64,000 nucleotides of DNA from Escherichia coli (GCF_003991155.1 NZ_CP031293.1), one strand, 5' to 3'; shown: positions 12,742-30,948, counted from the stretch's first letter. Made by a program: numbers and translations. The notes: generated by a model not told the origin, from the sequence alone.

Positions 12742-12753
12742 ACGATCAGTAGA

Positions 12754-12783
12754 GGTGAATAGCGACCCACGACGCTATTCACC
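12754..12783. repeat. Perfect 11-bp inverted repeat (GGTGAATAGCG ... CGCTATTCACC) at the lysC 3' end / island junction
   Basis: Seen directly; no adjacent T-run; could be lysC terminator stem or junction element. Confidence 0.5.
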
Positions 12784-12795
12784 ATGCCGGTTCAA

Positions 12796-13143
12796 TTACG
12801 AATTACTGCGGCGCTGTTGCTTTTCCGCATGTACGCGTTTCACAATCTTATAAATCCATTGCAGCGTCAGATTATATTTCTTCGCTAATTCGGCGTAGTT
12901 GCGCCCATCGCACTCGCTATAGATTTGGTAGTCACGCTCCGATGCTCGTCCGGAGATCCCCTTAGGGAAATAAATGCTTTGTCCGCCCCAGTTACGCATC
13001 ATTCGGTCGGCAATGGCAAAGCCCACATTTTCTGCCGATGAACTGTCGAGATTGATGCTTTCAATCAGAACTTGCGATGCATGAAAAGCCAGGTCGTTAA
13101 TGATCTCCGGTGTCCGGGCCATCTCTTTTGATTTTCGTATCAT
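12796..13143 (-). CDS. Mor/C-family (phage Mu middle/late) transcriptional activator
   Basis: 115-aa ORF; C-terminus GGQSIYFPKG...RDYQIYSECDGRNYAELAKKYNLTLQWIYKIVKR matches the conserved Mor/C HTH region (Mu Mor GGGQVYIPRG...RIWNDFNGRNVSELTTRYGVTFNTVYKAIRR); GGAG RBS 7 nt upstream. Confidence 0.8.
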   Translation of the reverse strand: MIRKSKEMARTPEIINDLAFHASQVLIESINLDSSSAENVGFAIADRMMRNWGGQSIYFPKGISGRASERDYQIYSECDGRNYAELAKKYNLTLQWIYKIVKRVHAEKQQRRSNS

Positions 13144-13364
13144 TTTTCATCTCCATATATCTTGCATCCTGAATAAGACCCGATGCGTGTAAAACCACGG
13201 ATATACGCTAAGCAGTTGTCATTACTGCTACTCAATACATTCAACAAACAAATAAACAATTAACAAAAATATAAATTTTTAATATTAATGAACGCCATAA
13301 ATTCATGAAATAGATATATTGTTTGCGTTATGTTTCTTGTCAACAGGTGTATCATTTTACACGA

Positions 13365-13384
13365 TACTGTATACACATACAGTA
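13365..13384. promoter_or_regulatory. LexA operator (SOS box) TACTGTATACACATACAGTA
   Basis: Matches consensus TACTGTATATATATACAGTA at 18/20 with both CTG/CAG half-sites perfect; flanked by inverted TTTTACAC / GTGTAAAA; overlaps a candidate plus-strand sigma-70 promoter (TTTACA-16-TACAGT). Confidence 0.7.
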
Positions 13385-13680
13385 TTATTTTTACTTGTAG
13401 TGTAAAAAGATCGTTTCCCTCACAGTCGCTGACTTTCTTAAACAAACTTTAAAAATCAAATAACTACTGACTATTCCTACGATTCACCATCATCTTTTCC
13501 CTGCATAATGACGCGCTTATTCGCGAGGTCACCTTTTGCTCTTTAATTGCTGAGTGGATTTATTAGCGGGCATGTTCATTTATAGAGAATCTATTTTTTA
13601 AACTTATTTATTAAAGCTTTTTTCATTCTTCACTGGCGGGTTCTGGCGACACTAAACGCTCACTTATCAGGAGATACCGT

Positions 13681-13968
13681 ATGAAAAAAGTCACTCTTCC
13701 CCGGCTTTCCGGTTGGCTGGTCGCTTCCGTCGCGCTGTTTGTCGTGATCGGCTGGACCTCTTCAGCACAAATCCCGGTCGTCATTTATAAACTAAGCCTG
13801 GTTTCGCTTTCCGCGGTGCTGGGATACTGGCTCGATCGCAGTTTGTTCCCCTGGGCACGGCCTGACTCTTTTTGCCCCTGGAAGGAACCGCGTTGCTGCG
13901 CGGCGGCAATGATTCGCCGGGCTATCATCGTTGCTGCCGTCTGCCTTTCCGTCGCGTTAGGGCTATAG
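13681..13968 (+). CDS. Putative holin-like small membrane protein (three predicted hydrophobic segments)
   Basis: 95-aa ORF with hydrophobic helices, immediately upstream of the endolysin gene; function inferred from position. Confidence 0.45.
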   Translation: MKKVTLPRLSGWLVASVALFVVIGWTSSAQIPVVIYKLSLVSLSAVLGYWLDRSLFPWARPDSFCPWKEPRCCAAAMIRRAIIVAAVCLSVALGL

Positions 13969-13970
13969 TG

Positions 13971-14576
13971 ATGTGGCTGAAATATATCGCGTCTATGATT
14001 ATTTTCGTTCTTTTCCCACTCAACGCCTCTGAACCGCCGAGAGCCTCTCTGGCATGGCGAAACGAACTAATTCGTACAGCTCGAGAAGTCTGGGGGCTGA
14101 ATGCCCCAGTGGCCGACTTTGCCGGGCAATTACACCAGGAGTCCGCCTGGCAGCCAATGGTACGTTCCCCCGTTGGCGCACAAGGTATGGCGCAATTTAT
14201 GCCTGCTACAGCGACATGGATAAGCCAGTTGTATCCACAATTGCGTGAAAACAAACCGTATAACCCAACCTGGGCGATTCGCGCGCTGGTGCAATATGAC
14301 CAGCATTTGTGGAAAAACATCTCTGCGAAAAATGATTGTCAGCGTATGGCGTTTACCCTAAGCGCCTATAACGGCGGTCAGGGGTGGGTTAACCGGGATA
14401 AAAAACTGGCTGCATCCAAAGGGTTAGATGCCACTAGCTGGTTTGGTCATGTTGAGCAAGTCAACGCCGGGCGCAGCGCCACGAACTGGCGAGAAAATCG
14501 TCGCTATCCAAAGATGATCCTCTATCAACATGCCGCCCGCTATTTACTCTGGGGACAGGCAAGCTGTCTTCATTAA
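13971..14576 (+). CDS. Endolysin, lytic transglycosylase (SLT domain) with hydrophobic N-terminus (signal or SAR-like)
   Basis: Motifs HQESAW and GAQGMAQFMPATA typical of the SLT catalytic region; start taken at the internal ATG at 13971 just after the upstream ORF stop. Confidence 0.8.
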   Translation: MWLKYIASMIIFVLFPLNASEPPRASLAWRNELIRTAREVWGLNAPVADFAGQLHQESAWQPMVRSPVGAQGMAQFMPATATWISQLYPQLRENKPYNPTWAIRALVQYDQHLWKNISAKNDCQRMAFTLSAYNGGQGWVNRDKKLAASKGLDATSWFGHVEQVNAGRSATNWRENRRYPKMILYQHAARYLLWGQASCLH

Positions 14577-14588: not shown

Positions 14589-14903
14589 ATGAAACTCAGT
14601 ATCGATTTTTGGGAAGTGATCTCCCTTATGCTTTCCTTCGTTGGATTAATGTTTGCTGCCGGAAAACTGCTGTTAGCACAAATTGAAAAACGACTTAATG
14701 AGCGTTTTGAATCTCTGGAAAACGCGCGCCGGGAATCAGAAACAAGTTGGTCGAAACTGGAAAGAGAATTTCTCGAATTTCGTGCCGAGCTTCCGCTGCA
14801 TTATGTCCGCAGAGAAGATTATCTTCGTGGGCAAGCAGTATTAGAAGCGAAGCTGGATGCCTTATATAGCAAAATCGAGCTGTTACAACGTGGCAGTTAT
14901 TGA
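14589..14903 (+). CDS. Putative spanin-like lysis accessory protein (N-terminal TM helix plus coiled coil)
   Basis: 104-aa ORF, N-terminal hydrophobic segment followed by charged coiled-coil-like sequence; position after endolysin. Confidence 0.4.
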   Translation: MKLSIDFWEVISLMLSFVGLMFAAGKLLLAQIEKRLNERFESLENARRESETSWSKLEREFLEFRAELPLHYVRREDYLRGQAVLEAKLDALYSKIELLQRGSY

Positions 14904-14904
14904 A

Positions 14905-14941
14905 AAATCCCCACCCTTATGTAAGGGTGGGGATTTTTTTA
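14905..14941 (+). terminator. Strong rho-independent terminator (ATCCCCACCCTTatgtAAGGGTGGGGAT plus T7) between lysis cassette and tail genes
   Basis: 12-bp perfect stem followed by TTTTTTT; A-run on the other side makes it bidirectional. Confidence 0.7.
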
Positions 14942-15047
14942 ACCATTCAATTTTTTCTCTAAATCACATTAAAAGATTCTTCACCTTCGCTGCTTCAGAA
15001 TACATTTCAACGATAACGAAGTGAGCGGTAATTAAGGTACAGCCTAT

Positions 15048-15503
15048 ATGGAAATTTTATCTGTAATGAATTCTGTTGTGACCAGATTACGTGAACACAA
15101 CTCCGAAATGGATATATTTATTTCATCTAAGGATGCCCAGAAATATATTCCACAGACACAACGAGTTGCAGTGATTATTAATTATAGCGGTTCTGTCTTT
15201 GCTACGCCCGAAAGCAGTAATGCCATCGTGCAACAGCAAATACTCCGCTTAACCGCCACCGTTATTGTTGGCAAAAATTGTGATGCATTAAACGCACTTG
15301 ATCACATACGCAGCGCATTGGGTGGCCTTCAGCTTCCTGATTGCGATCGTCTTCTTTGGCTTGAAAAAGAAATTAATACGGGTGAGAGCGGCGGTTTCTG
15401 CCGCTACATCCTGGAAATGGCGACCAGCTCGCTATTTATCGCTGAACAGGAAAGCACGGATCTTCCCCTGCTTACGGAAGTTAACTACGAGGAAACTGAA
15501 TGA
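15048..15503 (+). CDS. Hypothetical tail-associated protein (first gene of tail operon; possibly tail completion/terminator)
   Basis: 151-aa ORF translationally coupled (ATGA) to the next ORF; role inferred only from position upstream of sheath. Confidence 0.5.
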   Translation: MEILSVMNSVVTRLREHNSEMDIFISSKDAQKYIPQTQRVAVIINYSGSVFATPESSNAIVQQQILRLTATVIVGKNCDALNALDHIRSALGGLQLPDCDRLLWLEKEINTGESGGFCRYILEMATSSLFIAEQESTDLPLLTEVNYEETE

Positions 15504-15697
15504 AATACATCTACAACGGCCCAGCAAGCGGCGTCACCCTTGCCGATGGACAAGAAATCTTATTGTGGCCGAACAGTGAAATTGATCTGCCAGAAGACAA
15601 CGAGTGGGTCATGACCATGATTGCCCGCAATCATCTGACTCCTGTCATCACTCAGGAAGAACAAAATAACGTAGAGGAAATTGTACATGGCAGCTAA
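15500..15697 (+). CDS. Small hypothetical protein (65 aa) preceding tail sheath
   Basis: ORF overlapping neighbours at both ends; typical of small conserved proteins upstream of Mu-like sheath genes. Confidence 0.4.
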   Translation: MKYIYNGPASGVTLADGQEILLWPNSEIDLPEDNEWVMTMIARNHLTPVITQEEQNNVEEIVHGS

Positions 15698-17111
15698 TTA
15701 TCTGCACGGTGTAGAAACTATTGAAATTGAAACCGGCCCGCGTCCGGTTAAAGCGGTAAAATCCGCCGTCATCGCTTTAATCGGTACAGCCCCCTGCGGT
15801 CCGGTAAATAAACCAACATTATGCCTTTCTGAAAGCGATGCTGCGCAGTTTGGCTCGACTCAGGCTAACTTTACGATCCCACAGGCACTGAAGGCAATTT
15901 ATGACCACGGTGCCGGTACGGTGGTGGTGATTAACGTGCTGGATCCGGCAAAACATGGCTCCAACATCAGCAATGAGAGTATCACTTTTGATGCTAACAA
16001 CCAGGCGAAGCTCGCTCACCGCAATGTGCGTAACGTGGTACTAAAGCCCTCTTCATCAAATTCATCAACCTTTAACACCGCAGCATTTAGCGTAGATGAA
16101 CAAACAGGCATAATTACCCGTAAAGGAGCCGACATTCCTCCTGGTGCGAAAGTTTGTGCCTATTATTCCTGGTGCGACCCTACAAAGGTCACCGCAGCCG
16201 ATATTATCGGTACCGTAAATACCGCAGGCGACCGCACGGGGATGAAACTGCTACAGGACACCTATAACCTGTATGGTTTCTACGCCAAAATCCTGCTTGC
16301 TCCCGTGTTCTGTACGCAAAAATCAGTAACTACAGAGCTGATTGCACAAGCGGAAAAACTTGGTGCGATTACCTACATTGATGCCCCGATTGGGACGACA
16401 TTCCAGCAGGTATTGGCAGGACGCGGTTCGCAAGGGGCTATCAACTTCAACACCAGCTCTGATCGTGCGCGTTTATGTTACCCACACGTCAAAGTTTACG
16501 ATGGCATCACTAACCAGGAAGTTCTCGAACCGCTCTCTTCGCGCGCTGCCGGGCTACGTGCCAAAGTAGACCTCGAAAAAGGTTTCTGGTGGAGCAACTC
16601 AAACCAAGAAATTCAGGGTATTACCGGTATTGAACGTTCGCTTTCCGCAATGATTGATGATCCACAAAGCGAAGTGAATCAGCTAAACGAAAACGGCATT
16701 ACCACTATTTTCAATAGTTACGGCTCTGGTCTGCGCTTGTGGGGCAACCGCACTGCAGCGTGGCCTACCGTGACCCATATGCGTAACTTTGAAAACGTCC
16801 GCCGGACAGGCGATGTAATTAATGAGTCAATCCGTTATTTCAGTCAGCAGTATATTGATATGCCGATTAATCAGGCGCTGATTGATGCCCTGACCGAATC
16901 GGTAAATACCTGGGGCCGTAAGCTGATTGCCGACGGCGCACTGCTTGGCTTTGAATGCTGGTACGATCCGGCGCGAAATTCACCGACTGAACTCAGCGCT
17001 GGGCATTTATTGCTGAGCTATAAATTCACCCCACCGCCGCCGCTGGAACGTCTGACGTTTGAAACTGAAATTACTTCTGAATATTTAGTCTCTCTGGAGA
17101 GCAATAGCTAA
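15687..17111 (+). CDS. Contractile phage tail sheath protein
   Basis: About 474-aa ORF starting MAANYLHGVETIEIETGPRPV...; size and N-terminal motif typical of Mu gpL / P2 FI-type sheath proteins; RBS GAGGAAA upstream of the ATG at 15687. Confidence 0.85.
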   Translation: MAANYLHGVETIEIETGPRPVKAVKSAVIALIGTAPCGPVNKPTLCLSESDAAQFGSTQANFTIPQALKAIYDHGAGTVVVINVLDPAKHGSNISNESITFDANNQAKLAHRNVRNVVLKPSSSNSSTFNTAAFSVDEQTGIITRKGADIPPGAKVCAYYSWCDPTKVTAADIIGTVNTAGDRTGMKLLQDTYNLYGFYAKILLAPVFCTQKSVTTELIAQAEKLGAITYIDAPIGTTFQQVLAGRGSQGAINFNTSSDRARLCYPHVKVYDGITNQEVLEPLSSRAAGLRAKVDLEKGFWWSNSNQEIQGITGIERSLSAMIDDPQSEVNQLNENGITTIFNSYGSGLRLWGNRTAAWPTVTHMRNFENVRRTGDVINESIRYFSQQYIDMPINQALIDALTESVNTWGRKLIADGALLGFECWYDPARNSPTELSAGHLLLSYKFTPPPPLERLTFETEITSEYLVSLESNS

Positions 17112-17635
17112 TGGCTGGAAAAATTCAAATTAACCGTATTACCAACGCCAATATTTATCTCGATGGTAATAACCTTTTAGGTCGTGCAACCGAAATTAAA
17201 TTGCCGGATGTCAGTTTAATTATGCAGGAGCATAAAGCACTGGGCATGGTGGGTAAAATCGAACTCCCGGCGGGTTTCGATAAACTGGAGGGCGAAATTA
17301 AATGGAACTCCTTCTATCAGGACGTAATGCGTAAAACGGCAAACCCGTGGCAGGCGGTTGCATTACAGTGCCGCTCCAGTATTGATTGCTATAACTCCCA
17401 GGGGAAAGCGAATCAATTAGCGCTAGTGACACATTTAACCGTGATGTTTAAAAAGAATCCACTGGGCACATTTAAACAGAATGAAAACCCGGAATTCAGC
17501 AGCGCCTTTGGTTGCACTTATATTAAACAAGTAGTTGATGGTGAAACGCTGCTTGAACTTGATTATATGGCCAATATTTTCCGGGTTAATGGTGTGGATC
17601 AATTAAGTACCTATCGCAATAACATCGGTGGCTAA
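17111..17635 (+). CDS. Phage tail tube protein
   Basis: 174-aa ORF directly following sheath (TAATG overlap); sheath-tube order conserved in contractile tails. Confidence 0.8.
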   Translation: MAGKIQINRITNANIYLDGNNLLGRATEIKLPDVSLIMQEHKALGMVGKIELPAGFDKLEGEIKWNSFYQDVMRKTANPWQAVALQCRSSIDCYNSQGKANQLALVTHLTVMFKKNPLGTFKQNENPEFSSAFGCTYIKQVVDGETLLELDYMANIFRVNGVDQLSTYRNNIGG

Positions 17636-17685: not shown

Positions 17686-18003
17686 ATGAAAGAACATTAT
17701 ATCTTACAGTTCCCGTTTACTTCAGCGGCGGGAGACGTAATTAACACTCTGCAATTACGTCGCCTGAAAGTAAAAGATATGCGCAACGCGCGCCGGATCA
17801 GCGAAAAACCTGAAGAGTGGGATGAACCGCTAATGGCGGCAATGACCGGACTGGTGCCAGAAGATTTAGCTGAAATGGATTTGCTGGATTACCAGGCATT
17901 GCAGAAACGATTTCAATCCATGCTTAGCGTGGCTACAGAATCCGCCACTGTTATGGCAAGCGATGGCGTTACTGGCGAGATGGTTTCGCTTTCCACCCAG
18001 TGA
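17686..18003 (+). CDS. Putative tail assembly chaperone (gpE-like position)
   Basis: 105-aa acidic ORF between tube and tape measure genes. Confidence 0.5.
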   Translation: MKEHYILQFPFTSAAGDVINTLQLRRLKVKDMRNARRISEKPEEWDEPLMAAMTGLVPEDLAEMDLLDYQALQKRFQSMLSVATESATVMASDGVTGEMVSLSTQ

Positions 18004-18192: not shown

Positions 18193-20568
18193 TTGGCCAA
18201 CGATATTATTACCCAGCTTCAGGCGCGTAATGAGACGTTGACGCAGGCAATAGCCCGTTACGGCTCACTCAACGCCAGAACATTGTTAACTCTCTCTACT
18301 CAGCAGGCGACAGTTATCAAACTAACGCAGCAGCTTGCCGATTCCGCTCTCCGCCTGGAGGAAAATAGCCGCAGCCGCGCTAATCTGATGGAGAAAACCC
18401 AAACATTTGCCGGGCAATTTAGCAAAGTATTCAATGTTGAAGCCCCCGACTGGAAGTTGCCGTATGAGTTTCAGGACAACATGGTCAATATGGCGACCAA
18501 AGGTGGGATGAATGCTACAACCCGCGAGACGCTCAGCCTTAATCTGCGCGACTGGAGCATGGATTTTAACCAGCAGCAGACCACCTTACAGAACGCAGCC
18601 CAAACGCTGATCGAAGGCAATTTGTCGTCGATACAGGATCTCAACCGTTATATGCCGGAGATCGCCAAAGCTGCCACCGCCACGCGCGAAAGTGCTGAAA
18701 CATGGGCGAATGCCGCGCTCGCAACCCATGATCGACTGAATATTGCCCCGGAAAATTTCCACGCCGCGCAAAACATGATGTACGGCATTAGCAAAAGCGG
18801 TGGGCCTGCCATTGCTGAACAAACGCAGTGGATAGAGAAATTTGCAGGTAAAACCGGCGCTCAGGGTCTGGAAGGTATGGCTGAACTGACCGCCACCATG
18901 CAGATCGCCATGAAAAACGGGGCCAGCGCCAGTGCGGCGGCGGAGAATTTCGACCACTTTCTGCAAACCACCTTTTCGAAAAAAACCGATTACTGGTTCG
19001 TCAGCCAGGGCGTTGATCTGCAAGGCTCTCTGCTTGAGCATCAGCAAAACGGTATGGGTGTTAGCGAAGCCATGACTCATATCGTGCAAATGCAGCTTGA
19101 GAAGATGAATCCGGCGATCCTCGACACCTTCAAACGCACCATGCAGATCGAAGATTTATCTGCCCGCAGCAATGCGCTGCAATCGATGGTGACGCAGTTT
19201 AATCTGGGGGAAATGTTCGGCGATGCGCAAACAGTGGAATTCCTGGCCCCTATGCTGGCGAATATGGAGGAATATCGCCAGTTAAAAGCCTCTGCCATGC
19301 AAGCCACCAGCAAGAATCTGATTGATGCCGACTTTTCTGCGCAAATGGCCTCGCCCATTGAACAGACTAAAGCGTTACAGCTGGCGTTAAATGATTTATG
19401 GCTCAGCATTGGCTTGCAATTAATGCCGCTGATTGGCGAGCTGGCACAAAGCCTTACGCCGGTTATTCGTCAGTTCAGCGCCTGGCTACGTGAGCACCCG
19501 ACACTGGTGCAAAACATCGCGAAAATCGTCGGGGCGATTTGGCTGTTTAACGGTGCGCTGAATGTTTTAAAGCTGGGCGCGAACCTCATCACCTCGCCGT
19601 TTATTCGTCTGGTCGATATCTTCCTGAAAGTCAAGGCAAGTCTGGCGCTCACAGGCGGGGCAAGTAAGATGCTATCAGCGGTTAAGTCATTGGGTGGCGG
19701 CGCAAAATGGCTAACGCAACTGCTTGGTCGTGGCCTGATTGGAACATTGAAACTGGTTGGTCGGACCGTTCTCTCACTAGGCCGGGTGCTACTGATGAAT
19801 CCCATTGGTCTGGTCATCACTGCGATTGCGGGCGCTGCTTATCTGATTTATCGCAACTGGGAGCCTATCTCCAGGTTCTTTTCGACCATCTGGCAACGTA
19901 TCACCACGGCCTTTGACGGCGGCATTGCAGGAATTTGTCGGTTGATTCTCGACTGGTCACCGCTGGAGTTGTTCTATAGCGCCTTTTCCAGTGTGATGAA
20001 TTGGTTTGGTGTCGAGATGCCTGCAAGTTTTAGCGAGTTCGGCAGCAATCTTCTGGGCAGTCTGGTTGACGGCATAATGAATGCCTTCCCCGCTCTGAAA
20101 GGCATTATTGATCAGGTAAAAAACGCCATCCCAGACTGGCTAAAAACCACGATGGGTATTAGTACAGAAGGATCGGCTACAGCTATTACAAGCACGACTA
20201 ATACCGCATCCGTCTCCCCCGCGACCGTTGTTCCAGGCGTTGCCGGTGCGATTTTAACGCCGCCGGTGGGCAAACAACTCGCGCCATCCGGCAAAACGGC
20301 TACGCCGTCATCGGCGCCAGCGGCAAAAAATACAGCCGCCAAACCCGTATCTGCCTCTTTACCTGGTAAATCCGTAACCAAAGCGGCGACGCTACCTTCC
20401 CGTTCCTCAGGAAAAGTTCAGGTGAATTTTTCGCCACAAATTACCGTGCAGGGTAACGGACAAAACACCACTAAAGAGATTCAGAACGTGTTGACGATGA
20501 GTAAACGCGAACTGGAAAGAATGATTAACGATGTAATGGCGCAGCAGCAGCGCCGGGGGTATGCCTAA
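18193..20568 (+). CDS. Tail tape measure protein
   Basis: 791-aa ORF, alpha-helical and Ala/Gln-rich with central hydrophobic segments; position after chaperone; start codon uncertain (TTG at 18193 in track). Confidence 0.8.
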   Translation: MANDIITQLQARNETLTQAIARYGSLNARTLLTLSTQQATVIKLTQQLADSALRLEENSRSRANLMEKTQTFAGQFSKVFNVEAPDWKLPYEFQDNMVNMATKGGMNATTRETLSLNLRDWSMDFNQQQTTLQNAAQTLIEGNLSSIQDLNRYMPEIAKAATATRESAETWANAALATHDRLNIAPENFHAAQNMMYGISKSGGPAIAEQTQWIEKFAGKTGAQGLEGMAELTATMQIAMKNGASASAAAENFDHFLQTTFSKKTDYWFVSQGVDLQGSLLEHQQNGMGVSEAMTHIVQMQLEKMNPAILDTFKRTMQIEDLSARSNALQSMVTQFNLGEMFGDAQTVEFLAPMLANMEEYRQLKASAMQATSKNLIDADFSAQMASPIEQTKALQLALNDLWLSIGLQLMPLIGELAQSLTPVIRQFSAWLREHPTLVQNIAKIVGAIWLFNGALNVLKLGANLITSPFIRLVDIFLKVKASLALTGGASKMLSAVKSLGGGAKWLTQLLGRGLIGTLKLVGRTVLSLGRVLLMNPIGLVITAIAGAAYLIYRNWEPISRFFSTIWQRITTAFDGGIAGICRLILDWSPLELFYSAFSSVMNWFGVEMPASFSEFGSNLLGSLVDGIMNAFPALKGIIDQVKNAIPDWLKTTMGISTEGSATAITSTTNTASVSPATVVPGVAGAILTPPVGKQLAPSGKTATPSSAPAAKNTAAKPVSASLPGKSVTKAATLPSRSSGKVQVNFSPQITVQGNGQNTTKEIQNVLTMSKRELERMINDVMAQQQRRGYA

Positions 20569-21521
20569 TGTATGCCGTTTTAGGAGAGATTGAATTTAAG
20601 GTTGTCACATTCTGGGACGGCTTTAAAAGCACAATGGGCGTGGATTACGCCACACATGCCCGTATAGAAGGCAAACCCGGCGTGCAGTTTATTGGCGATA
20701 AGCTGGATATGCTGGCGCTGGAATTTTCCCTGCACAGCCAGTTTTGCCAGCCCACAACAGAGCTGAACCGACTGCGTGAAGCCATGCTTGCTCACAAGGC
20801 GATGGCACTGGTATTTGGCAATGGCGATTATCGCGGCTGGTTTGTGATTACGGAGCTAACCGCCACCCACCAGCACACCGATCCCTGGGGCAATGTGATT
20901 GCCCAAAACGGAACGATGTCGCTCCAGGAGTACACCGGCGATCCTAAAAATCCACTTTTACCTCCGGCGATTACCACCCAGGAGCCCAACATCGAGGAAA
21001 AGGCGAGCGATTTTCCCGACAAGGTGGAGTCCTGGTTTGATCAGATATTAAACGCCATTGAAGAAGGTATGCGTAAGGCCAAAGAGATGCTGGATGAACT
21101 GACACAATCCATTGAAGATATTAAAAAAACGGTGGCAAAAGTGAAAGCAATGATTAAAGAGGCCAAAGCGTTAAAAGAAAAGTGTGAAAAGATAATTACG
21201 TCATTGAAAAAGACAATCGACGCCATCGAAACCCTGTTTAAACAGCCAATGGATCTGCAAACGCTGGCAGGCCTACCAAAAGCGTTGTCGGCGCAGATTA
21301 AAGCTTTACTGGGTAACATGCCAGGTATCCGGGACTGCGCCAATGACGCCAGTACGCTGGTTGACCATGCTCAGGCGCTTTTCGACGACATTACCAGCGA
21401 CATCGCCGAAGCGACGTTCGATAAAGCCACGTCGTTGGTTGAGCAGGCACGTACAACGGTACAACAAACCACTCCCGCAGTGAGCCAGCTTGCTGCCGTA
21501 ACCATTACCAGGAGCTGGTAA
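20568..21521 (+). CDS. Tail protein, P2 gpU-like N-terminal domain with coiled-coil C-terminal extension
   Basis: N-terminal region (ARIEGKPGVQFIG...WFVITELTATHQHT) resembles the P2 gpU / Mu N N-terminal family; overlaps TMP stop. Confidence 0.7.
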   Translation: MYAVLGEIEFKVVTFWDGFKSTMGVDYATHARIEGKPGVQFIGDKLDMLALEFSLHSQFCQPTTELNRLREAMLAHKAMALVFGNGDYRGWFVITELTATHQHTDPWGNVIAQNGTMSLQEYTGDPKNPLLPPAITTQEPNIEEKASDFPDKVESWFDQILNAIEEGMRKAKEMLDELTQSIEDIKKTVAKVKAMIKEAKALKEKCEKIITSLKKTIDAIETLFKQPMDLQTLAGLPKALSAQIKALLGNMPGIRDCANDASTLVDHAQALFDDITSDIAEATFDKATSLVEQARTTVQQTTPAVSQLAAVTITRSW

Positions 21522-22767: not shown

Positions 22768-23469
22768 ATGAAAGGAGTAACCCGTCAAACGGGGATTATC
22801 AGCGATATTGACGAAACCAGTGTTCGGGTACGGGTCACTCTACCAGAGTGTGACAATCTGAAGAGCAACTGGCTTGCGGTACTTCAACGCAATTCCCAGG
22901 ACAATAAAGACTACTGGCTACCGGATATGGGCGAGCAAGTGGAAGTTCTGCTGGACGATAACGGTGAAGATGGCGTGGTGCTGGGTGCCGTTTATTCTAC
23001 GGTTGACACCGCGCCTGTAGCCTCGCGCGACAAACGTTACGTCCAGTTTTCTGATGGCGCAGCGTTTGAATATGACCGCAGCACGCACCAGCTGACGATT
23101 AACGGCGGTATCGAGAAAATCGTGATTGAGGTTATCGACAGCACCCGCCTGACATCGCCCAACGTTGAGATTAAAGCCCAACACGTCACCGTGACTTCCG
23201 ATACCGTCGATGTTAAAGCGACCGATGTCAGCATCGACGCCACTAAGGTCGAGGTTAAAGCAGCAGCAGTGACGGTAGATGCGCCCATGAGCACCTTTAC
23301 TGGCAACGTCACGGTAATGAAAAAACTCACCTGGCTTGGCGGGATGGCAGGAAGTGGAGGCATCGGTAACGCAGCCACGATAACCGGCAATGTCAACGTG
23401 ATCGGCAACGTTCAGGCCAGCGGCGCATTGCAGGACAGCGGTGGCAACTCCAACCACCATTCACACTGA
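22768..23469 (+). CDS. Baseplate assembly protein V-like (central spike)
   Basis: 233-aa ORF; N-terminal OB-fold-like region and C-terminal repetitive beta region (VTVTSDTVDVKATDVSIDATKVEVKAAAVTVDA) typical of gpV spikes. Confidence 0.8.
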   Translation: MKGVTRQTGIISDIDETSVRVRVTLPECDNLKSNWLAVLQRNSQDNKDYWLPDMGEQVEVLLDDNGEDGVVLGAVYSTVDTAPVASRDKRYVQFSDGAAFEYDRSTHQLTINGGIEKIVIEVIDSTRLTSPNVEIKAQHVTVTSDTVDVKATDVSIDATKVEVKAAAVTVDAPMSTFTGNVTVMKKLTWLGGMAGSGGIGNAATITGNVNVIGNVQASGALQDSGGNSNHHSH

Positions 23470-23472: not shown

Positions 23473-23505
23473 TTAACCCGCCTGATGGCGGGTTTTCTCT
23501 TTTTA
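23473..23505 (+). terminator. Hairpin (AACCCGCCtgatGGCGGGTT) plus T-rich tract after the spike gene; possible partial intra-operon terminator
   Basis: Perfect 8-bp stem followed by TTCTCTTTTT. Confidence 0.5.
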
Positions 23506-23567
23506 ATCAATCAGTTTTCTAAATCGCTTTAATATCTCCACAGCCCGTTCAGGGCGAAAATACCCTC

Positions 23568-23927
23568 ATGAACACAAAAACACGCCCCTCAACGCTGCAC
23601 TGGCAACCGGCCTTGCAGCGGCCTGAAGAATACGTCTGCGGGCTGGATGATATTCACCAGGCAATACACATCATTCTGCGTACACCGCGCGGCAGTGATC
23701 CCCACAGACCGCTGTTTGGCAGCAACTTGTGGCACTACATCGATTACCCCATCGAGCGGGCTATCCCGCATGTGGTACGGGAGTCGGTGGAAGCCATCCG
23801 CCAGTGGGAACCGCGCTGTCGGTTGCTGAAGGTGACACCAGTAATCGACGGCGAACATCTGACGTTACGTGTGCAATGGCGCGCCGCTGACGGCGTTATC
23901 AACTCAACGGAGGTGTTATGGCGATAG
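23568..23927 (+). CDS. Baseplate wedge protein gpW / gp25-like
   Basis: 119-aa ORF; PRGSDPHRPLFGSNLWHYIDYP resembles the GPW_gp25 family core. Confidence 0.75.
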   Translation: MNTKTRPSTLHWQPALQRPEEYVCGLDDIHQAIHIILRTPRGSDPHRPLFGSNLWHYIDYPIERAIPHVVRESVEAIRQWEPRCRLLKVTPVIDGEHLTLRVQWRAADGVINSTEVLWR

Positions 23928-25033
23928 CCGAACCCAATTTTATTGACCGCGATCCTGCGCAAATTACCAGTGAGATGATTGCGCAATACGAAGATGCCAG
24001 TGGTAAAAAACTCTATCCGGCACAGGCTGAGCGGTTGCTCATCGACCTGTTTGCCTATCGTGAAAACCTTGTACGCATCGCCATTCAGGAAGCGGCGAAA
24101 CAAAACCTGGTCGCGTATTCCCGCGCGCCAATGCTGGATTATTTAGGGGAGTTGGTGGGAGTTCACCGTTTGCCTGCGCAGCCTGCAAAAACGACGTTGC
24201 AGTTTTCGGTCGTTAGTGCGTATCCCGGCAATATCCTGATTCCCCAGGGGACGCGGGCCAGTGCCTCTGATAGCGTGATGTTCGCCACCGATGAAGATGT
24301 TCTGCTTCCGGCCAGGAGTTTGCATATCGCCGTTCCTGCCACCAGCCTCGCAGCAGGTGAACAGGGTAACGGCTGGCAGCCTGCACAAATTAGCGCACTG
24401 GTCGACAGGATTGGTCATTATGACATCAACGTAACCAACCTGACTGCGTCAACGGGCGGCTGCGGTGAAGAGAGCGATGACGCATTGCGCCAGCGTATCC
24501 AACTGGCACCAGAAAGCTTTAGTAATGCGGGCAGCTATGGTGCCTACCGCTTTCATACGCTTTCTGTTAGCCAGTCGATTATTGACGTTGCAGTACTGGG
24601 GCCGGACGAGGGATTGCCAGAAGGCTGCGTGGAGATCTACCCGCTAACCCTGAATGGTCTACCCGGCACGGAGTTGCTGGCGCAGATTGAACAAGAAGTC
24701 AGCAAGGAGAAAAAACGACCGCTGACCGACAAAGTGAGTGCGAAATGCGCTCTTCGAGTGCCGTATGAGATCCGTGCGCAGCTAATGCTGTTTACCACCG
24801 CCGATCAGGAGACAACGCTGGCTGCGGCGCGTAAAGCGATTAGCCTCTGGACGCAACAGCGGCAGAAACATCTGGGGCAGGACATTGTGCCAAACCAGAT
24901 AATCAAAGTGTTACAGGTCGATGGCGTCTATGACGTTGCGCTGAATATGCCTACAAAACGTATTTTGCAGGCGCATGAATGGGCGGAATGCACTGCAATA
25001 GACGTCACGATTGCCGGAGTCAGCGATGGATAA
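23918..25033 (+). CDS. Baseplate protein J-like
   Basis: 371-aa ORF after gpW with GGAGG RBS; W-J-I order. Confidence 0.8.
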   Translation: MAIAEPNFIDRDPAQITSEMIAQYEDASGKKLYPAQAERLLIDLFAYRENLVRIAIQEAAKQNLVAYSRAPMLDYLGELVGVHRLPAQPAKTTLQFSVVSAYPGNILIPQGTRASASDSVMFATDEDVLLPARSLHIAVPATSLAAGEQGNGWQPAQISALVDRIGHYDINVTNLTASTGGCGEESDDALRQRIQLAPESFSNAGSYGAYRFHTLSVSQSIIDVAVLGPDEGLPEGCVEIYPLTLNGLPGTELLAQIEQEVSKEKKRPLTDKVSAKCALRVPYEIRAQLMLFTTADQETTLAAARKAISLWTQQRQKHLGQDIVPNQIIKVLQVDGVYDVALNMPTKRILQAHEWAECTAIDVTIAGVSDG

Positions 25034-25742
25034 ATTGCTGCCACCGCCGCCGCTTGCCAGCGATGAGCGTTTTTCGATTCTGGCAAACATCGCCGCCGAG
25101 CGTTTTGCCCAACTCGATCTGACGGCGTTGATGGTTTATCTGGTCGACCTGGTTGATGCTTCGGCATTACCAGCCCTTGCAGAACAATTTCACGTTCAGG
25201 GGCTGGAAGGTTGGTTATTTACCACCGATGAGCGGGAGAAACGCGAGTTAATTAAACAAGCCATTGAACTGCATAAATATAAAGGAACAATTTGGGCGGT
25301 ACGGCGAGTGCTGGAAATACTTTCCTTACCCGGAACTATTTCAGAATGGTTTGAATATGGGGGAAGGGCTTATTTTTTTAAGGTAAATATTACACTAGAG
25401 GAAAAAGGATTAAATGAAGATGAATTCAATGCACTTATCACATTAATTCATGAATATAAAAATGTTCGTTCAAAGCTGGAAAGCATTGTTATTTGGCTTA
25501 TTAATCGAAGCCCAATACCAGTTATTGGCAGCGCCATGCAAGGAGGGGAAGTCATTACAGTATTGCCTCCTGTTGCAGAAAGCCTCAGCCAGTCATCAGG
25601 AATATTTTTAGCGACGGGTTATTGTGTGGAGGAATATATCCAACTACTACCTTATCAACCCGATCGCCTTACACAATCCCAACCGATGAAGGTCGGCACA
25701 GGATACTGGAGCACCGAAATTATGTCTGTATATCCGGAGTAA
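25026..25742 (+). CDS. Tail protein I-like (baseplate)
   Basis: About 238-aa ORF from ATG 25026 overlapping J stop; position before tail fiber. Confidence 0.7.
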
Positions 25743-25744: not shown

Positions 25745-27325
25745 ATGGCAAGTGAATTTTTTACAATATTAACTGCTGCAGGCAAAGCCAAAATTGCCTC
25801 AGCACTGGCCGAGCAAAAACAGATCCGTCTGCAAACTATGGTAGTTGGCGACGGTAATGGTAAATATATCGAACCGACAGAAAGTCAGACCAAAGTAGTC
25901 CATGAGGTCTGGCGTGGTCAGCTCAATACATTAAAAATTGCGCCAGATAATCCGGCCTGGGTTATCGCAGAAGCGATTATTCCCGAACAAGTCGGAGGCT
26001 GGTATGTACGCGAAGTTGGGTTACTGGATACCGACGGCACGCTGGTCGCTATTGGTAAATTCCCGGAAACCTATAAGCCACGATTACCTGCGGGGGCCAG
26101 TAAGCAAATCGTTATACGCGCGGTCATGGAAGTCACCAATGCAGACGCGGTGACGCTTTTGATCGACCCTTCAGTCGTTGTGGCAACCAGGGAATATGTC
26201 GATGACGCGTTGAAAACACATCAGCAATCACGAAATCATCCTGATGCGACGCTGACACAAAAAGGTTTTACGCAGCTCAGTAATGCAACTAATAGCGATG
26301 ATGAGACTAAAGCAGCCACGCCAAAAGCGGTAAAAACGGCATATGACCTGGCAAATAGCAAAGCCGCAACCAGTCATACTCATGCCTGGAATCAGATTAC
26401 TGGTATCCCTGACGGTACACTGACGCAGAAAGGAGTCGTTAAACTTAACAACACAACAAATAGCACCAGTACAACGGAAGCTGCAACGCCAAGTGCGGTT
26501 AAAGCAGCGATGGACAAGGCTATTGCTGCGGCGCCGTCCAGCCATACCCATGCCTGGGGGCAAATAACAGGTATCCCCGACGGTACGCTGACACAAAAAG
26601 GGGTCGTGAAACTTAATAATGCGACCAACAGCACCAGTACGACGGAAGCTGCGACGCCGAACGCGGTTAAGGCAGCGATGGATAAGGCTATTGCTGCGGA
26701 AAGCTGTCCTGTTGGGATGCCTATTCCCTGGCCATCTGATTCTGTACCTTCAGGCTACGCTCTGATGACAGGTCAGACATTTAATAAAACCTCCTATCCC
26801 AAACTGGCAATTGCATATCCATCTGGTGTTATTCCTGATATGCGCGGATGGATAATTAAAGGAAAACCATCCAGTGGGCGCGCTATATTATCTACTGAAC
26901 TGGATGGAGTTAAATCACATAACCATACGGGCAGTATTTCGAGTACTGATTTAGGGACGAAAACCACACCCCTCACAGACTTGGGGACTAAAACTGCATC
27001 ATCATTTAACCATGGAAATAAAACAACAAGTTCATCTGGCTCAGGCTCGGCAACTGCAACAGTAAGAACAGGGACATCTTCACCAGAGGGCCAAGGCGAC
27101 TGGACATCATATGGCCCTGGTACCGGATCATCTTTGGCAATTAATGTTCCATCACACGTTCATAGTGTTACAATTGGTTCCCATTCGCACACTGTTGCGC
27201 TCGGCACCCATTCGCATTCAATTGCACTTGGTTCCCATAACCACTCCCTAACCATTAATAATACCGGCAGCACCGAAAACACCGTCAAAAATATCGCATT
27301 CAACTATATTGTGAGGCTAGCATGA
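25745..27325 (+). CDS. Tail fiber protein (P2 gpH-like N-terminal anchor, repeat region, His-x-His tip)
   Basis: N-terminus [23 protein letters not shown]...HEVWRGQLN...[12 protein letters not shown] resembles the conserved P2 H N-terminal domain; three tandem ~45-aa repeats; C-terminal [22 protein letters not shown]. Confidence 0.85.
26244..26700 (+). repeat. Intragenic tandem repeats (three ~135-bp units) within the tail fiber gene
   Basis: Repeated [12 protein letters not shown](A/T)[12 protein letters not shown](S/N)[12 protein letters not shown]...HTHAW(N/G)QITGIPDG seen at DNA and protein level. Confidence 0.7.
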
Positions 27326-28029
27326 ATACTTTTACCTTTTCTGATGAAGCTCAAATACTAACTGTATATAATTTTTCACAAGACTCCCAAGAATATATCG
27401 GTGAGTCTGATGCATACATTGCACCTAATACAGGCTTGCCAAATTATTGCACATTAATTTCACCTCCCGAAAAGGCTCCTGGTTTTACTCCAGTGTGGGA
27501 GAATGAAACATGGAGACTTATTGAAGATCATCGAGGCCAAACTGTTTATAACAAAGTTGATGGTAGCCAGCTTATTATTCAAGAATTGGGCCAATTACCT
27601 GAAAATGTAACAGTCATTTCCCCGACAGGTTCTTTTGAACGTTGGGATGGTGAAAAATGGCAACCATCTATAACCGATGCTAAAGAGGCGAAATACTCTG
27701 CAATCAAAAATCAACGCGATGCCATCACAACCGATTACATCATCATCAACAACCATCACTTCCACAGTGATACAAATAGCCGTATCCAACAGCTTTCACT
27801 CACAAAAATGGGAGCGGAGAAAAAAATTCCGCCAGGGTTAATGTGGAAAACTAAAAATAATGGTCTGATTGAGTTAACCAACGAAATCGCTGCCCAGTTT
27901 GAATCGGTCACCATGGATCACGATATGCGCTTGTTCGCAAACGCCCAGCGTCATATCGCGGCGGTGGAAGCACTGGACGATATTCAGGCGGTGCTCGACT
28001 ACGATTATTCAACAGGCTGGCAACCATGA
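27322..28029 (+). CDS. Tail fiber assembly (chaperone) protein
   Basis: 235-aa ORF overlapping the fiber stop (ATGA); lower GC than surrounding genes, typical of host-range modules. Confidence 0.75.
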
Positions 28030-28481
28030 GTAAAACCACTGTCTGGCTCGCTTGTTATAAGGGCCGAACAGAGCACCGTGGTATTGCCCGACTGGCTGAC
28101 TGGCTTACCCGTAAAATCACACGCGGTAGTTATTCCCACTGTGAATTAGCCGTTAAGCATGGTGAAAAGAGATACCTTTGTTACTCCGCATCACTGCGCG
28201 ATCGCGGTGTACGCGGAAAAATAATGCCATTGCCAGCGGATAAGTGGGATATGCTGCCGCTCCAGGCCAGCCTTCAGGATGTGGAAACTTTTTTCCGTAA
28301 ACATGATGGCAAAAAATATGACTGGCGCGGAGCATTAGGAATTATTATCGGTAATAAAGAACAGCGCGATCGCCTGTTTTGCAGTGAATTTTGTGCTGAA
28401 TTTCTGCAACTGAAGGAAAGCTGGCGCTATTCTCCAAACCACTTGTACGCTTTAGTCAGTAGCTGGCAATATCAGCCGTAA
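28026..28481 (+). CDS. Hypothetical protein (151 aa), Cys/His-containing, translationally coupled to tail fiber assembly gene
   Basis: Intact ORF with ATGA overlap to upstream gene; no confident family assignment. Confidence 0.5.
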   Translation: MSKTTVWLACYKGRTEHRGIARLADWLTRKITRGSYSHCELAVKHGEKRYLCYSASLRDRGVRGKIMPLPADKWDMLPLQASLQDVETFFRKHDGKKYDWRGALGIIIGNKEQRDRLFCSEFCAEFLQLKESWRYSPNHLYALVSSWQYQP

Positions 28482-28495
28482 AATAACGCCGGGCA

Positions 28496-29296
28496 TCACG
28501 CCCGGCGCATTACCGTCTGGTACAGTAAACTATCCAGTTCCTTAACGTCCCCTTCTCTGCTATCCGGTAACACTGGTGGAGTTTCCCCGCGCGCCAGCTC
28601 CGCGCGAATAAACGCATGTAACAAAGGACGACGCGGACCATATTCCGCCTCCCCCGCTCGCTGTTTACGCTCCAGCAGTTCGTCTATTTCTACGCGTAAC
28701 GGCGCATCAAGCTCGCTTCCCGCCAGTAACTCGGAAAAGCGCATTGGCGGCACGCCTTTTCCCGCTTCAACCCAGCGTACGGCCAGCAGCGGACGCAGCA
28801 CGTAAAAGTATTTTTTCAGTCGAACTTCATCGCCCTGCAAATAGCCGCGGAAGTTTTTCTGCGCCATCGAATAGTAATGCCAGCGTGCACGCAACGAAGA
28901 AAACCACATTGGGACCATTGCCTTAAGCGCCGTTATCGTTTCTTCATCTTGTTGATAGACCACCGGAGAATCCAGCCATTCTATCAGCGTCGGATTCGCG
29001 CCTTTCAATAATCCCAGCGCCTTACGCCACTCCCAACCGGAAACATCTAATTCGTCGTCGATGGGCAGCTCGATAACATCGCGCGGTGACTCTACACGCA
29101 GATACCATTCCAGCGGATGGACATACAAAAACCGTACATCGTAGTCGCTATCGGGCGAGGCAAATCCCCAGCCGCGGCTGCCTGATTCGCAGGCGTACAG
29201 CACTTTCACGCCATAGAGACGTTCTATTTCTTTTAACTGCTGCGATACCCGTTCGCGCATCGCAGCACTGACTCCATTTAATGGCATGTTACTCAC
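28496..29296 (-). CDS. Pol-beta-superfamily nucleotidyltransferase-domain protein
   Basis: 266-aa ORF with N-terminal motif ESGSRGWGFASPDSDYDVRF (GS-x9-12-D-x-D nucleotidyltransferase signature); C-terminal ~200 aa unassigned. Confidence 0.7.
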   Translation of the reverse strand: MSNMPLNGVSAAMRERVSQQLKEIERLYGVKVLYACESGSRGWGFASPDSDYDVRFLYVHPLEWYLRVESPRDVIELPIDDELDVSGWEWRKALGLLKGANPTLIEWLDSPVVYQQDEETITALKAMVPMWFSSLRARWHYYSMAQKNFRGYLQGDEVRLKKYFYVLRPLLAVRWVEAGKGVPPMRFSELLAGSELDAPLRVEIDELLERKQRAGEAEYGPRRPLLHAFIRAELARGETPPVLPDSREGDVKELDSLLYQTVMRRA

Positions 29297-30420
29297 CCTT
29301 TGATATTAACCAACCCATGCAGAACCTGATCCAGACCGCCAAATACAGAGATGTTATCGATCCGCTCAGCCACTCTCTCCAGCGTTTCCAGTTCTTTTAA
29401 GCGTAACGCCACCGGGTTGTTTTCCATGACTTTAGCGGTATTGAGTAACGAACGTGTCGCTGCCGTTTCTTCACGCCGACGAATCACATTCGCCTGCGCA
29501 GATTTCTCTGCCTCAACCAGCTGCGCGAGGATATTTTTCATATCACCAGGCAGGACGATATCTTTCACCCCTAATGAGGCAATCTCCATACCAAATGGCA
29601 ACATACGCGATTTAACCTGTTCGCTGACAACGTCATCAATGACCTGTTTATCTTCCAGCAACTCATCCAGCGTACGCGTACCTACCGCTTCACGCAGTGC
29701 AAATTGCAATTCCCGATACAAATGATCAATCGGCTTCGTTAACTGACTAAATGCCAATAACACGTCGCTGTAGCGCCAGTTGGCGGCGAGGTTAATCCGC
29801 AGATTGACCTTATCTTTCGTTAAGATTTCTTGCCCGCTGACTTCCAGTACCTGCAAGCGGGTGTCAACCACTTCAGCTTCAACCAGATGGTTAATTTTCC
29901 AGTACGCAGTCAGCCCCGGCGGTAACAGCGCCTGCGTTTCACCATCGATTTTCAGTACACCTACGTGCCAGGCCGGAACCTGCACCGTCAGTATCGCATC
30001 GCGGCCTTTAACTGCCCCTTTGCGCCGTGGCTGCAATACCGCATTCATCACCTCCGTTTGAACCTGGACTTGCTGCGTATTCATCCGCACCAGCGTCAAA
30101 TCATCCTCTACACGCCAGTACAAACGACGCGTTGATGGCGGCAGGATCTCCAGCAAAATACCGTCCATATACAACGCCCCGGCTTCAGTCTCCGACAAGT
30201 CGGCCACCACGCAATATCTTTCCACCCAATCAGGCTGAAAGCGGCGCAAATAATCCGCCAGCACGTCGGGAACTTCGCTGCCATCGAACGTAATCAGCAA
30301 GACTTCTGGCGTATTTAACCAGGGTAAAAGATGCTCGCCTGCATGCAGCACTTTGTAGTAATCGCCATTTCTGGAGAGTAATGCCAGCTGATCTTTTCTT
30401 ACGCTTATTTTCTTAATCAT
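29293..30420 (-). CDS. SPFH (band-7/stomatin-prohibitin-flotillin) domain protein with ~170-aa N-terminal extension
   Basis: 375-aa ORF; C-terminal half shows SPFH-like region followed by coiled coil (EAEKSAQANVIRRREETAATR...); 4-nt overlap with downstream NTase gene; AGGAA RBS. Confidence 0.75.
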   Translation of the reverse strand: MIKKISVRKDQLALLSRNGDYYKVLHAGEHLLPWLNTPEVLLITFDGSEVPDVLADYLRRFQPDWVERYCVVADLSETEAGALYMDGILLEILPPSTRRLYWRVEDDLTLVRMNTQQVQVQTEVMNAVLQPRRKGAVKGRDAILTVQVPAWHVGVLKIDGETQALLPPGLTAYWKINHLVEAEVVDTRLQVLEVSGQEILTKDKVNLRINLAANWRYSDVLLAFSQLTKPIDHLYRELQFALREAVGTRTLDELLEDKQVIDDVVSEQVKSRMLPFGMEIASLGVKDIVLPGDMKNILAQLVEAEKSAQANVIRRREETAATRSLLNTAKVMENNPVALRLKELETLERVAERIDNISVFGGLDQVLHGLVNIKG

Positions 30421-30948
30421 TATCTATTCCTTGCTTAACAGCCGTCGCGGAAGCAGATACGAAGCGACAGGGGAATTCCCTTTTGCCTGTTACCCGGCGT
30501 CTTTATCGGCGACGTTATCGGGGATCGCTGACTGTGCAATCCCTCATTTTTTATTTAATAAGTTACAACCAGTATTCATTTCAGGAATGAATTCGGGAAT
30601 CGAACCCATAATTGGCGTCAAAGGCTGACGGAACACGCCCGGAAAACAGCCTGGCCGTTCCTGGTGTGCCGACGGGGTTTAATCCCCTTTGAAATTCAGT
30701 ATCAACGCAAAAGTGTTATTGCGAGAAGCGTGCCAGAATTGAGAAAAACCATTAACAAAATGAAAAATAAAGAGTTAATAAATTACTGTTGTTTGTAGGG
30801 GGAAAACTTTTTGCTAAATTTTTATCTGTATTTATCGTCAATTATCAAGAAAGATAGATATTTAAGAAGGGAACAAAGGAATATTATCAGTTCTGCTCGC
30901 AAACGAATTCCCGTACACTGAACTCTCTGGCTCACTGAGGGCACCATC

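Follow-up and report, generated by a model that had tools for sequence, protein, structure and literature searches.

A headless BcepMu-like tail cluster beside lysC in Escherichia coli as a candidate R-type tailocin

Between lysC and yjbD in one Escherichia coli genome (GCF_003991155.1, NZ_CP031293.1) lies an island that encodes a Mor/C-family activator, lysis proteins and a contractile phage tail, with no genes for a phage head. We analyzed this island within a stretch of 64,000 nt (hereafter the window, in whose numbering all coordinates are given), and asked what keeps a tail without a head in a bacterial chromosome: the killing of other bacteria, another use of the tail, the carriage of accessory genes, or nothing at all. 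Our results favor the first answer, in that the island probably derives from a BcepMu-like transposable myovirus that lost its head genes and was domesticated to serve as an R-type tailocin, i.e. a phage tail-like bacteriocin. Because the headless layout is kept under purifying selection beside lysC in six or more enterobacterial genera, the island would most likely encode an as yet undescribed, DNA-damage-inducible tailocin related to carotovoricin, the R-type tailocin of Pectobacterium.

Loss of phage modules and conservation of the headless layout

The limits of the island were determined by blastn of the lysC-yjbD spacer of strain K-12, which carries the empty site, against the window. Homology stops at 12742 and restarts at 30819, placing the island at 12743-30818 and correcting the limits of 12742-30948 given in an earlier note on this DNA. 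The left edge is the lysC stop codon (12742), the right edge is the conserved yjbD upstream region, and 121 bp of the K-12 spacer are swapped for the island. The closest complete phages are BcepMu-like transposable myoviruses (Bcepmuvirus), namely BcepMu, phiE255, Escherichia PhiKM and Klebsiella KP12, whose sheaths share 71-74% identity with that of the island; the tube is 77% identical to that of PhiKM, the Mor/C, holin, SLT and tail genes are collinear, and the same late-promoter motif is found. Unlike these phages, the island keeps to one fixed chromosomal site and has not transposed to variable sites. Judged by these closest relatives, the island would descend from Bcepmuvirus rather than from Mu or P2 proper, the phages to which the earlier note had likened it.

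To define which phage genes are missing, all 51 annotated PhiKM proteins were searched against the full window by tblastn (E <= 0.01). Only Mor/C, the holin, the SLT transglycosylase, the last lysis-cassette gene product, gp37, gp38 and the tail proteins found matches in the window. None was found there for the small and large terminase subunits, portal, F, G, protease, major head protein and Mup36, nor for the transposase, B-like protein, gam, GemA and repressor, and neither this search nor the list of open reading frames (ORFs) revealed integrase remnants in the window. The absence of capsid, portal, terminase, protease, replication, transposase and integrase genes from the island, as first read from the sequence, was thus borne out. 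Compared with the phage, two blocks are gone, the early region from Mor to the lysis genes and the head module from the lysis genes to gp37. The retained tail block begins exactly at gp37, and Mup36, the upstream neighbor of gp37 in the phage, is deleted. Transposase A/B, the repressor, and the head and packaging module that mark a functional Bcepmuvirus prophage therefore all went undetected.

Sheath and tube genes of the island type (at least 90% identical) were found in 195 of 5426 complete E. coli genomes, with allele identities of 92-100%. In two of the carriers, NZ_CP195049.1 and NZ_CP024826.1, which are otherwise identical, the match to the region falls into two pieces with an annotated ISL3-like ISKox3 transposase beneath it, suggesting an ISKox3 insertion. 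The divergent alleles in CP104371 and CP062901 occupy the same site in the same headless order, with every gene annotated as intact, and the divergence among E. coli alleles arose entirely within the headless state. When the layout (pgi-lysC-Mor-holin-SLT-membrane protein-Gp37-sheath onward) was compared across taxa, it was found beside pgi-lysC in at least six others: Salmonella (LT2 tags STM4198-STM4219, according to the record notes), two Superficieibacter species, Phytobacter, Citrobacter freundii, E. albertii and Enterobacter cancerogenus. In the last of these, the orthologous island lies just after yjbD rather than before it. Database names hint at further carriers (Dryocola, Lelliottia and many Salmonella subspecies), and one Salmonella sequence cluster has 1281 members. 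In a neighbor-joining tree of sheaths, the lysC-linked elements form one clade, apart from full prophages and from other headless clusters.

Selection on the island genes was estimated by the Nei-Gojobori method from synonymous (dS) and nonsynonymous (dN) divergence. Between E. coli and Salmonella, dS was 0.6-2.5 in island genes and 1.26 in the flanking lysC, which is consistent with descent since the Escherichia-Salmonella split. In the 18 genes with estimable dS, dN/dS ranged from 0.04 to 0.24, these between-genus ratios being approximate since dS values above 1 are saturated; for Mor, the fibre and a 151-aa protein, dS was too saturated for an estimate. All 20 island genes compared lack internal stops in both E. 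coli and Salmonella. Between E. coli alleles, where dS was 0.03-0.55, dN/dS was mostly below 0.3, including most structural genes, and was 0.03-0.13 for Mor; the tube, X, W and membrane proteins show little or no amino acid change despite dS of 0.07-0.26. These data indicate that the island is under purifying selection and is not a decaying remnant. A fixed locus, purifying selection and a variable fibre (see below) were all found, as is expected of a tailocin maintained as a host cluster.

Could the island nevertheless be a functionless prophage remnant that has stayed intact by chance and is decaying slowly? RefSeq flags of a fibre pseudogene in some genomes, an insertion sequence element in some copies and the lack of the island in most E. 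coli would fit such a history. This is, however, very unlikely given that 20 of 20 genes remain open in E. coli and Salmonella despite saturated dS, with low dN/dS wherever it can be estimated, and that cross-genus conservation extends to the regulatory boxes, to a terminator with preserved pairing and to a frameshift signal. The fibre pseudogene appears to be an annotation artefact, as its reading frame is continuous for 526 codons. Recent independent captures from active phages are also unlikely, since the copies have their locus, their deletion junctions and their non-coding elements in common.

Tail, lysis and cargo genes

Gene content was established from the ORF list, the RefSeq annotation of the identical locus in NZ_AP017617.1 and PHROGs profiles, whose E-values for the island genes range from 1e-13 to 1e-213. 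The order in NZ_AP017617.1 is lysC, Mor (leftward), holin, SLT transglycosylase, membrane protein, Gp37, a 65-aa protein, sheath, tube, tail assembly protein, tape measure, GpU-like, X, D, V, W, J, I, fibre, a DUF4376 protein, the 151-aa protein, a leftward nucleotidyltransferase and slipin, and yjbD. Every gene listed in the earlier note is present and intact, with no frameshift or stop and no contiguous head, terminase or integrase gene; its list had missed Gp37, the gp38-like gene, the 151-aa gene, the RlaP nucleotidyltransferase and the slipin. The cluster thereby holds the gene set of an R-type tailocin: terminator, sheath, tube, chaperones, tape measure, hub, spike, wedges, fibre and fibre chaperone.

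All genes described here are on the + strand unless stated otherwise. The tail block opens with a Gp37 family protein (15048-15503; Pfam Gp37), which matches PDB 2GJV (E 1.3e-54), an entry with six chains that we take to be STM4215. Pell and co-workers (2009) reportedly noted a likeness of the 2GJV protein to the lambda tail terminator gpU, and Gp37 is probably the tail terminator. It is followed by a gp38-like small tail protein of 65 aa (15500-15697; PHROG 895), 58% identical to the product of the PhiKM gene between gp37 and the sheath, and by the sheath of 474 aa (15687-17111; PHROG 23, E 2e-144), which is homologous to the R2 pyocin sheath PA0622 (E 5e-45). The tube of 174 aa (17111-17635) is annotated in RefSeq as a phage major tail tube protein, with Pfam Phage_tube in its orthologues. 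Downstream lie the tail assembly chaperone (17686-18003, with a next-frame extension to 18091) and the tape measure protein of 791 aa (18193-20568; PHROGs 28 and 5690). The baseplate hub region comprises GpU-like (20568-21521), X (21521-21730) and D (21718-22758) genes, matching PHROGs 788, 46 and 52 and the Pfam families Phage_P2_GpU, Phage_tail_X and Phage_GPD. The spike V (22768-23469) scores above the cut-off of NCBIfam TIGR01644 (phage_P2_V), and the baseplate wedges W (23568-23927), J (23918-25033) and I (25026-25742) match PHROGs 43, 6 and 48.

The chaperone extension was recognized by conservation of its peptide, LLARWFRFPPSEIDAL..., which is kept in the three E. coli alleles, Salmonella and PhiKM. 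PhiKM lacks an ATG at the extension, which fits a programmed frameshift of the kind typical of tail assembly chaperones.

The tail fibre (25745-27325, 526 aa) is read in one unbroken frame. RefSeq splits it, into two partial pseudogenes in certain genomes and into a pair of 'phage tail protein' features elsewhere, which is probably an annotation artefact caused by the mosaic sequence and repeats of the gene. The fibre consists of a conserved N-terminus (the first ~200 residues), repeats of about 50 aa and a C-terminal tip with five HxH motifs, in agreement with the HxH tip first noticed in this sequence. Repeat number and tip vary among alleles: the HxH tip is common to the window allele and Salmonella, and a Gly-rich tip takes its place in the other two E. 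coli alleles. The tip is ~60% identical to side-fibre tips of T4-like, P2-like and lambdoid phages. The I protein and the DUF4376 fibre assembly protein (27322-28029; PHROGs 1807/105) co-vary with the tip. The latter gene and that for the 151-aa protein (28026-28481; PHROG 1128) are conserved in Salmonella; a Pfam search with the 151-aa protein gave no match.

The lysis cassette comprises a holin of 95 aa (13681-13968; PHROG 1528, E 1e-35; Pfam Holin_2-3 in orthologues), an SLT-domain endolysin of 201 aa with a hydrophobic N-terminus (13971-14576; PHROG 669, E 2e-61), 64% identical to the PhiKM lytic transglycosylase, and a membrane protein (14589-14903; PHROG 462), 50% identical to the product of the last lysis-cassette gene of PhiKM. 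In the membrane protein, a charged and probably helical region comes after an N-terminal transmembrane segment; the protein is possibly an inner-membrane spanin.

At the right end of the island, an RlaP-family nucleotidyltransferase (PF10127; Pfam RlaP, E 5e-96) and an SPFH/slipin protein (Band_7, E 1e-23) are encoded leftward (28496-30420, - strand). This pair is present in all three E. coli alleles and so far in E. coli alleles only; Salmonella has other genes in its place. It may be an uncharacterized defence or stress module, and searches of PADLOC and NCBIfam matched it to no defence family. In Salmonella Infantis SARB27 (LT2 STM4204-4206), a gtrABC-type O-antigen glucosylation operon lies inside the tail cluster at the V-W junction (18227-21062 in the numbering of that locus), with the motif upstream of W retained; if the particle receptor were the O antigen, gtrABC could, as a matter of speculation, serve self-protection. 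Cargo differs between genera both at the V-W junction and at the right end (gtrABC in Salmonella, RlaP and slipin in E. coli), which raises the idea that the island persists as a cargo carrier with the tail genes as passengers. We regard this as the least probable of the explanations considered, since it is the tail, lysis and Mor genes that are conserved between genera and not the cargo, and since passenger status would not keep 20 reading frames open.

Predicted SOS control and late promoters

The Mor/C-family late transcription activator (12796-13143, - strand, 115 aa; PHROG 532, E 1e-35; Pfam Mor in orthologues) is 44% identical to PhiKM protein C/Mup21 and is divergent from the holin. A predicted SOS control element lies between them at 13353-13384, consisting of a LexA box, TACTGTATACACATACAGTA (13365-13384), and a decamer, CATTTTACAC (13353-13362). 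Scanning the window for TACTGT-N8-ACAGTA, with at most one mismatch allowed, returned this box alone, against 0.03 matches expected, and by our own comparison 18 of its 20 positions agree with the textbook LexA consensus. The Mor-holin spacers of seven loci, drawn from four genera, contain no other CTGT-N8-ACAG site, and the box lies 224-294 bp upstream of the Mor start codon in them. It is kept in the E. coli alleles, Salmonella, Superficieibacter, Phytobacter and E. albertii, and in a variant form in Citrobacter, altogether in five of the six genera set against the window, in spite of saturated synonymous divergence between genera. No LexA box was found in the carotovoricin loci, Brenneria, Lonsdalea, Chromobacterium or PhiKM. 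The earlier note had taken the control of the island to be Mu-like; the Mor regulator is indeed there, but the predicted LexA box in the Mor-holin region suggests that control is not purely Mu-like. The conserved, near-consensus box suggests that expression may be inducible by the SOS response, the controlled promoter being ambiguous.

The decamer is invariant across the seven aligned loci and can be read in two ways. Read rightward, it gives a -35 element TTTACA, a spacing of 16 nt and a -10 element TACAGT inside the LexA box; read leftward, it gives a -10 element TAAAAT facing Mor, with the LexA box over the -35 element and spacer. The leftward reading would make the simpler circuit. Further toward the holin, 65-90 bp upstream of it, a non-coding block (13590-13616, + strand), CATTTTTTAAAsTTATTTATTAAAG, is invariant except at two positions in the same alignment of seven loci. 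A search of the Mor-holin spacer for small conserved ORFs found none, and the leader RNA between the LexA box and the holin folds no better than shuffled sequence (z +1.6).

Three candidate late-promoter motifs were found, all on the + strand. The first, TTAAACAAACTTTAAAAATCAA (13438-13459), is a candidate Mor-dependent lysis promoter that matches the holin-upstream motif of carotovoricin, Brenneria and PhiKM and is conserved in Salmonella, Phytobacter, Citrobacter and E. albertii. The second, TTTTTTCTCTAAATCACATTAAAAG (14951-14975), lies upstream of gp37 and is the motif found before the head protease gene in PhiKM and before gp37 in the headless clusters of carotovoricin, Brenneria and Chromobacterium. 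The third, CTAAATCGCTTTAATATC (23519-23536), stands upstream of W behind a hairpin and T-run (23477-23504); it is conserved in four genera, also precedes W in PhiKM, Samsonia and Brenneria, and differs by one base in Pectobacterium.

A dyad-like pattern, yTAAA-N4-5-WTTAAWA, is common to these sites (13439-13454, 14960-14974 and 23520-23534, i.e. before the lysis genes, gp37 and W). It matches the window six times against 0.64 expected, a count that is indicative only as the pattern was set after the sites had been seen; of the remaining matches, one is reversed inside the conserved block upstream of the holin and two lie outside the island. The motif is placed before the holin, the head protease gene and W in PhiKM, before the holin, gp37 and W in Pectobacterium, Samsonia and Brenneria (with one-base variants in places), and between Mor and gp37 in Chromobacterium. 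This placement indicates that the motif upstream of gp37 in headless clusters is the phage head-protease-gene motif. At the site of the head-gene deletion, after the membrane-protein gene, an intrinsic terminator hairpin with a T-run (14904-14941, + strand) was identified, whose stem bases differ among four genera while the pairing is preserved; in the E. coli allele CP104371, this hairpin is deleted (15860-16013 in the numbering of that locus). These elements indicate a layout of three predicted transcription units with late promoters typical of the family, together with the late activator of the family. In Mu, Mor and C activate the middle and late promoters, and the three-unit layout with its late activator matches this control.

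Based on these elements, we propose the following model. DNA damage would trigger LexA self-cleavage and derepress the divergent Mor-holin control region. Mor would then be made and act at the dyad motifs of three late promoters, which sit before the lysis genes, before the genes from tail terminator to spike and before the wedge and fibre genes. Tails would assemble without heads, the holin and SLT endolysin would lyse the producer and release the particles, and these would bind related bacteria through the strain-variable fibre tip and kill them by sheath contraction.

Relation to known systems and possible roles

Carotovoricin, an experimentally established tailocin (PMC13195805), shares with the island a BcepMu-like gene order (holin, SLT, gp37, gp38, sheath and onward to I and fibre), the loss of head genes between the same neighbors, the membrane protein and gp37, and similar dyad motifs upstream of the holin, gp37 and W. 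The loci found in Pectobacterium and Samsonia are headless, and their sheaths are 75-76% identical to that of the island. The holin gene of Pectobacterium aroidearum is directly preceded by a type I secretion TolC-family gene, so the locus that we scanned matches the published left border of the carotovoricin cluster, tolC_2 (PMC13195805). The two systems differ in several respects. Carotovoricin occupies the tolC_2-ybiB site and not lysC (PMC13195805), and its sheaths form a separate clade nested among full prophages. Its loci show neither a LexA box nor a Mor gene within 10 kb upstream, both of which the island has, and they retain a lysis-cassette lipoprotein gene that the island lacks. Carotovoricin presumably switches its fibres with an invertase. 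The different locus and separate sheath clade place the island outside the carotovoricin lineage; it is therefore best viewed as a homologue of carotovoricin and not an orthologue, the two having probably been domesticated independently and in parallel.

Related clusters are found in other bacteria. In Brenneria and Lonsdalea, the head module is lost between the same neighbors, the membrane protein and gp37, and a transposase ~72-81% identical to that of PhiKM is retained, as is Mor in Brenneria; these clusters may be intermediate stages of domestication. Six loci in Chromobacterium spp. have Mor divergent from gp37-gp38-sheath-tube, with the late-promoter motif in the gap; the upstream stretch of 1-1.6 kb that was examined showed neither head nor lysis genes, and the cluster appears to be another independent headless derivative. 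The PhiKM head-protease-gene motif precedes gp37 in the lysC clade, carotovoricin and Chromobacterium alike. The headless Mu-like R-type clusters of Pseudomonas, such as the R-type syringacin (PMC4542187), represent an independent co-option of a Mu-type tail; the headless Pseudomonas loci found in our scan, possibly among the published ones, have sheaths 59-60% identical to that of the island, fall in a distant clade and have other flanks. Taken together, these comparisons indicate that the lysC clade, carotovoricin, Chromobacterium and Pseudomonas probably lost their heads separately, in a repeated, convergent domestication of one phage tail.

The R2 pyocin of Pseudomonas aeruginosa resembles the island in joining a headless contractile tail to a lysis cassette and an activator. 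R2 pyocin is SOS-induced, as is predicted for the island; it differs in its descent from a P2-like phage and in its gene order. It is controlled by PrtN and PrtR through RecA-dependent cleavage of PrtR, unlike the direct LexA box and Mor-family activator predicted for the island. Two other candidates for the same element or kind were set aside: the published ST131 tailocin (PMC9205054) is P2-like, and kosakonicin is P2-derived.

The combination of regulator, lysis genes and tail genes only had earlier been interpreted as the architecture of a tailocin and not of a prophage. The conserved headless layout, purifying selection, fibre-tip diversity, the conserved chaperone frameshift extension and homology to the proven tailocin carotovoricin (PMC13195805) all support this interpretation. 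More tentatively, and with rather less than even confidence in the whole, we suggest that the tailocin was domesticated before the Escherichia-Salmonella split and has been kept by lysC across Enterobacteriaceae including LT2 (STM4198-4219), that a LexA box directly controlling Mor, which in turn fires three phage-type late promoters, forms a circuit undescribed for tailocins, and that gtrABC may confer self-immunity. Our full-text literature search found no paper that treats the locus or STM4198-4219 as a tailocin, an older description being possible as subscription journals lay mostly outside the search. In the literature searched, the fibre gene STM4200 figures only as a diagnostic PCR target. 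The sheath orthologue STM4213 is among the proteins detected during Dictyostelium infection (PMC5797601), and its mRNA increases about six-fold with indole (PMC3405474); neither study looked for particles.

Several observations weigh against a tailocin. The island is dispensable, being carried by only 3.6% of complete E. coli genomes, some copies appear to carry an ISKox3 insertion, and the support from between-genus dN/dS is limited by the saturation noted above. Inside the lysC clade, the sheath tree disagrees with the species tree, and exchange between genera, perhaps via the conserved flanks, is suggested. Enterobacter cancerogenus lacks the LexA box though the downstream conserved blocks remain, and control of its island may have been rewired. 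The predicted LexA-controlled promoter can be read in either direction, and consensus scanning did not identify Mor's own promoter. Although a holin, an SLT endolysin and a possible inner-membrane spanin are present, the lipoprotein gene that stands between the SLT and membrane-protein genes in PhiKM and carotovoricin is missing, and neither an embedded lipoprotein frame nor an outer-membrane spanin was found in the lysis cassette; particle release may therefore be inefficient. Finally, the literature search found no experiment on the E. coli locus.

Purifying selection, moreover, proves a function and not which one. The tail could have been domesticated for a role other than killing bacteria, such as providing tails to the capsids of a BcepMu-like phage or satellite resident in the same host, lysis programmed to release DNA or public goods, or action on eukaryotic cells. 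Related sheath and tube genes (~70% identical) occur at variable sites in 628 of the 5426 E. coli genomes and could interact with the island; such loci were full prophages with head genes where examined in other species, and the Salmonella sheath protein was detected in amoeba infection, which also favors a role of this kind. The deletion of Mup36, the gene just upstream of gp37, speaks against it, however. PHROGs profiles revealed no AAA ATPase, tail-length or toxin cargo families of the Afp/PVC type in the 20 genes from Mor to fibre assembly, NCBIfam and PADLOC scans of a subset of island genes including the cargo matched no Afp/PVC-type families, and the island sheath matches Afp3 and Pvc2 weakly (E about 1e-4). 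Diverse fibre tips borne by an otherwise conserved chassis are the hallmark of bacteriocin-type targeting, and conserved chassis with variable fibres have been reported for carotovoricin, the nearest characterized relative and itself a bacteriocin (PMC13195805). We thus consider a non-killing role unlikely, and the tailocin remains the preferred interpretation.

Should particles be produced and prove lethal, E. coli lineages and Salmonella would hold an unstudied, DNA-damage-inducible weapon for competition between strains in the gut, where inflammation and antibiotics trigger the SOS response. The proposed circuit from LexA via Mor to the late promoters would be a simple two-step control, and the naturally swappable fibre tips could offer a chassis for engineered narrow-spectrum antibacterials in enterobacteria.

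The surroundings of the island were also inspected. No Rfam family matched within the island, the sole regional match being the lysine riboswitch upstream of lysC (11104-11300, + strand). On the other side, the window carries genes for a sugar-binding regulator, an SDR oxidoreductase and a mannose-type phosphotransferase (PTS) system between rluF and pepE (32358-34265 and beyond), which are present also in CP062901 and missing from K-12 and CP104371, thus forming a second variable segment beside the island.

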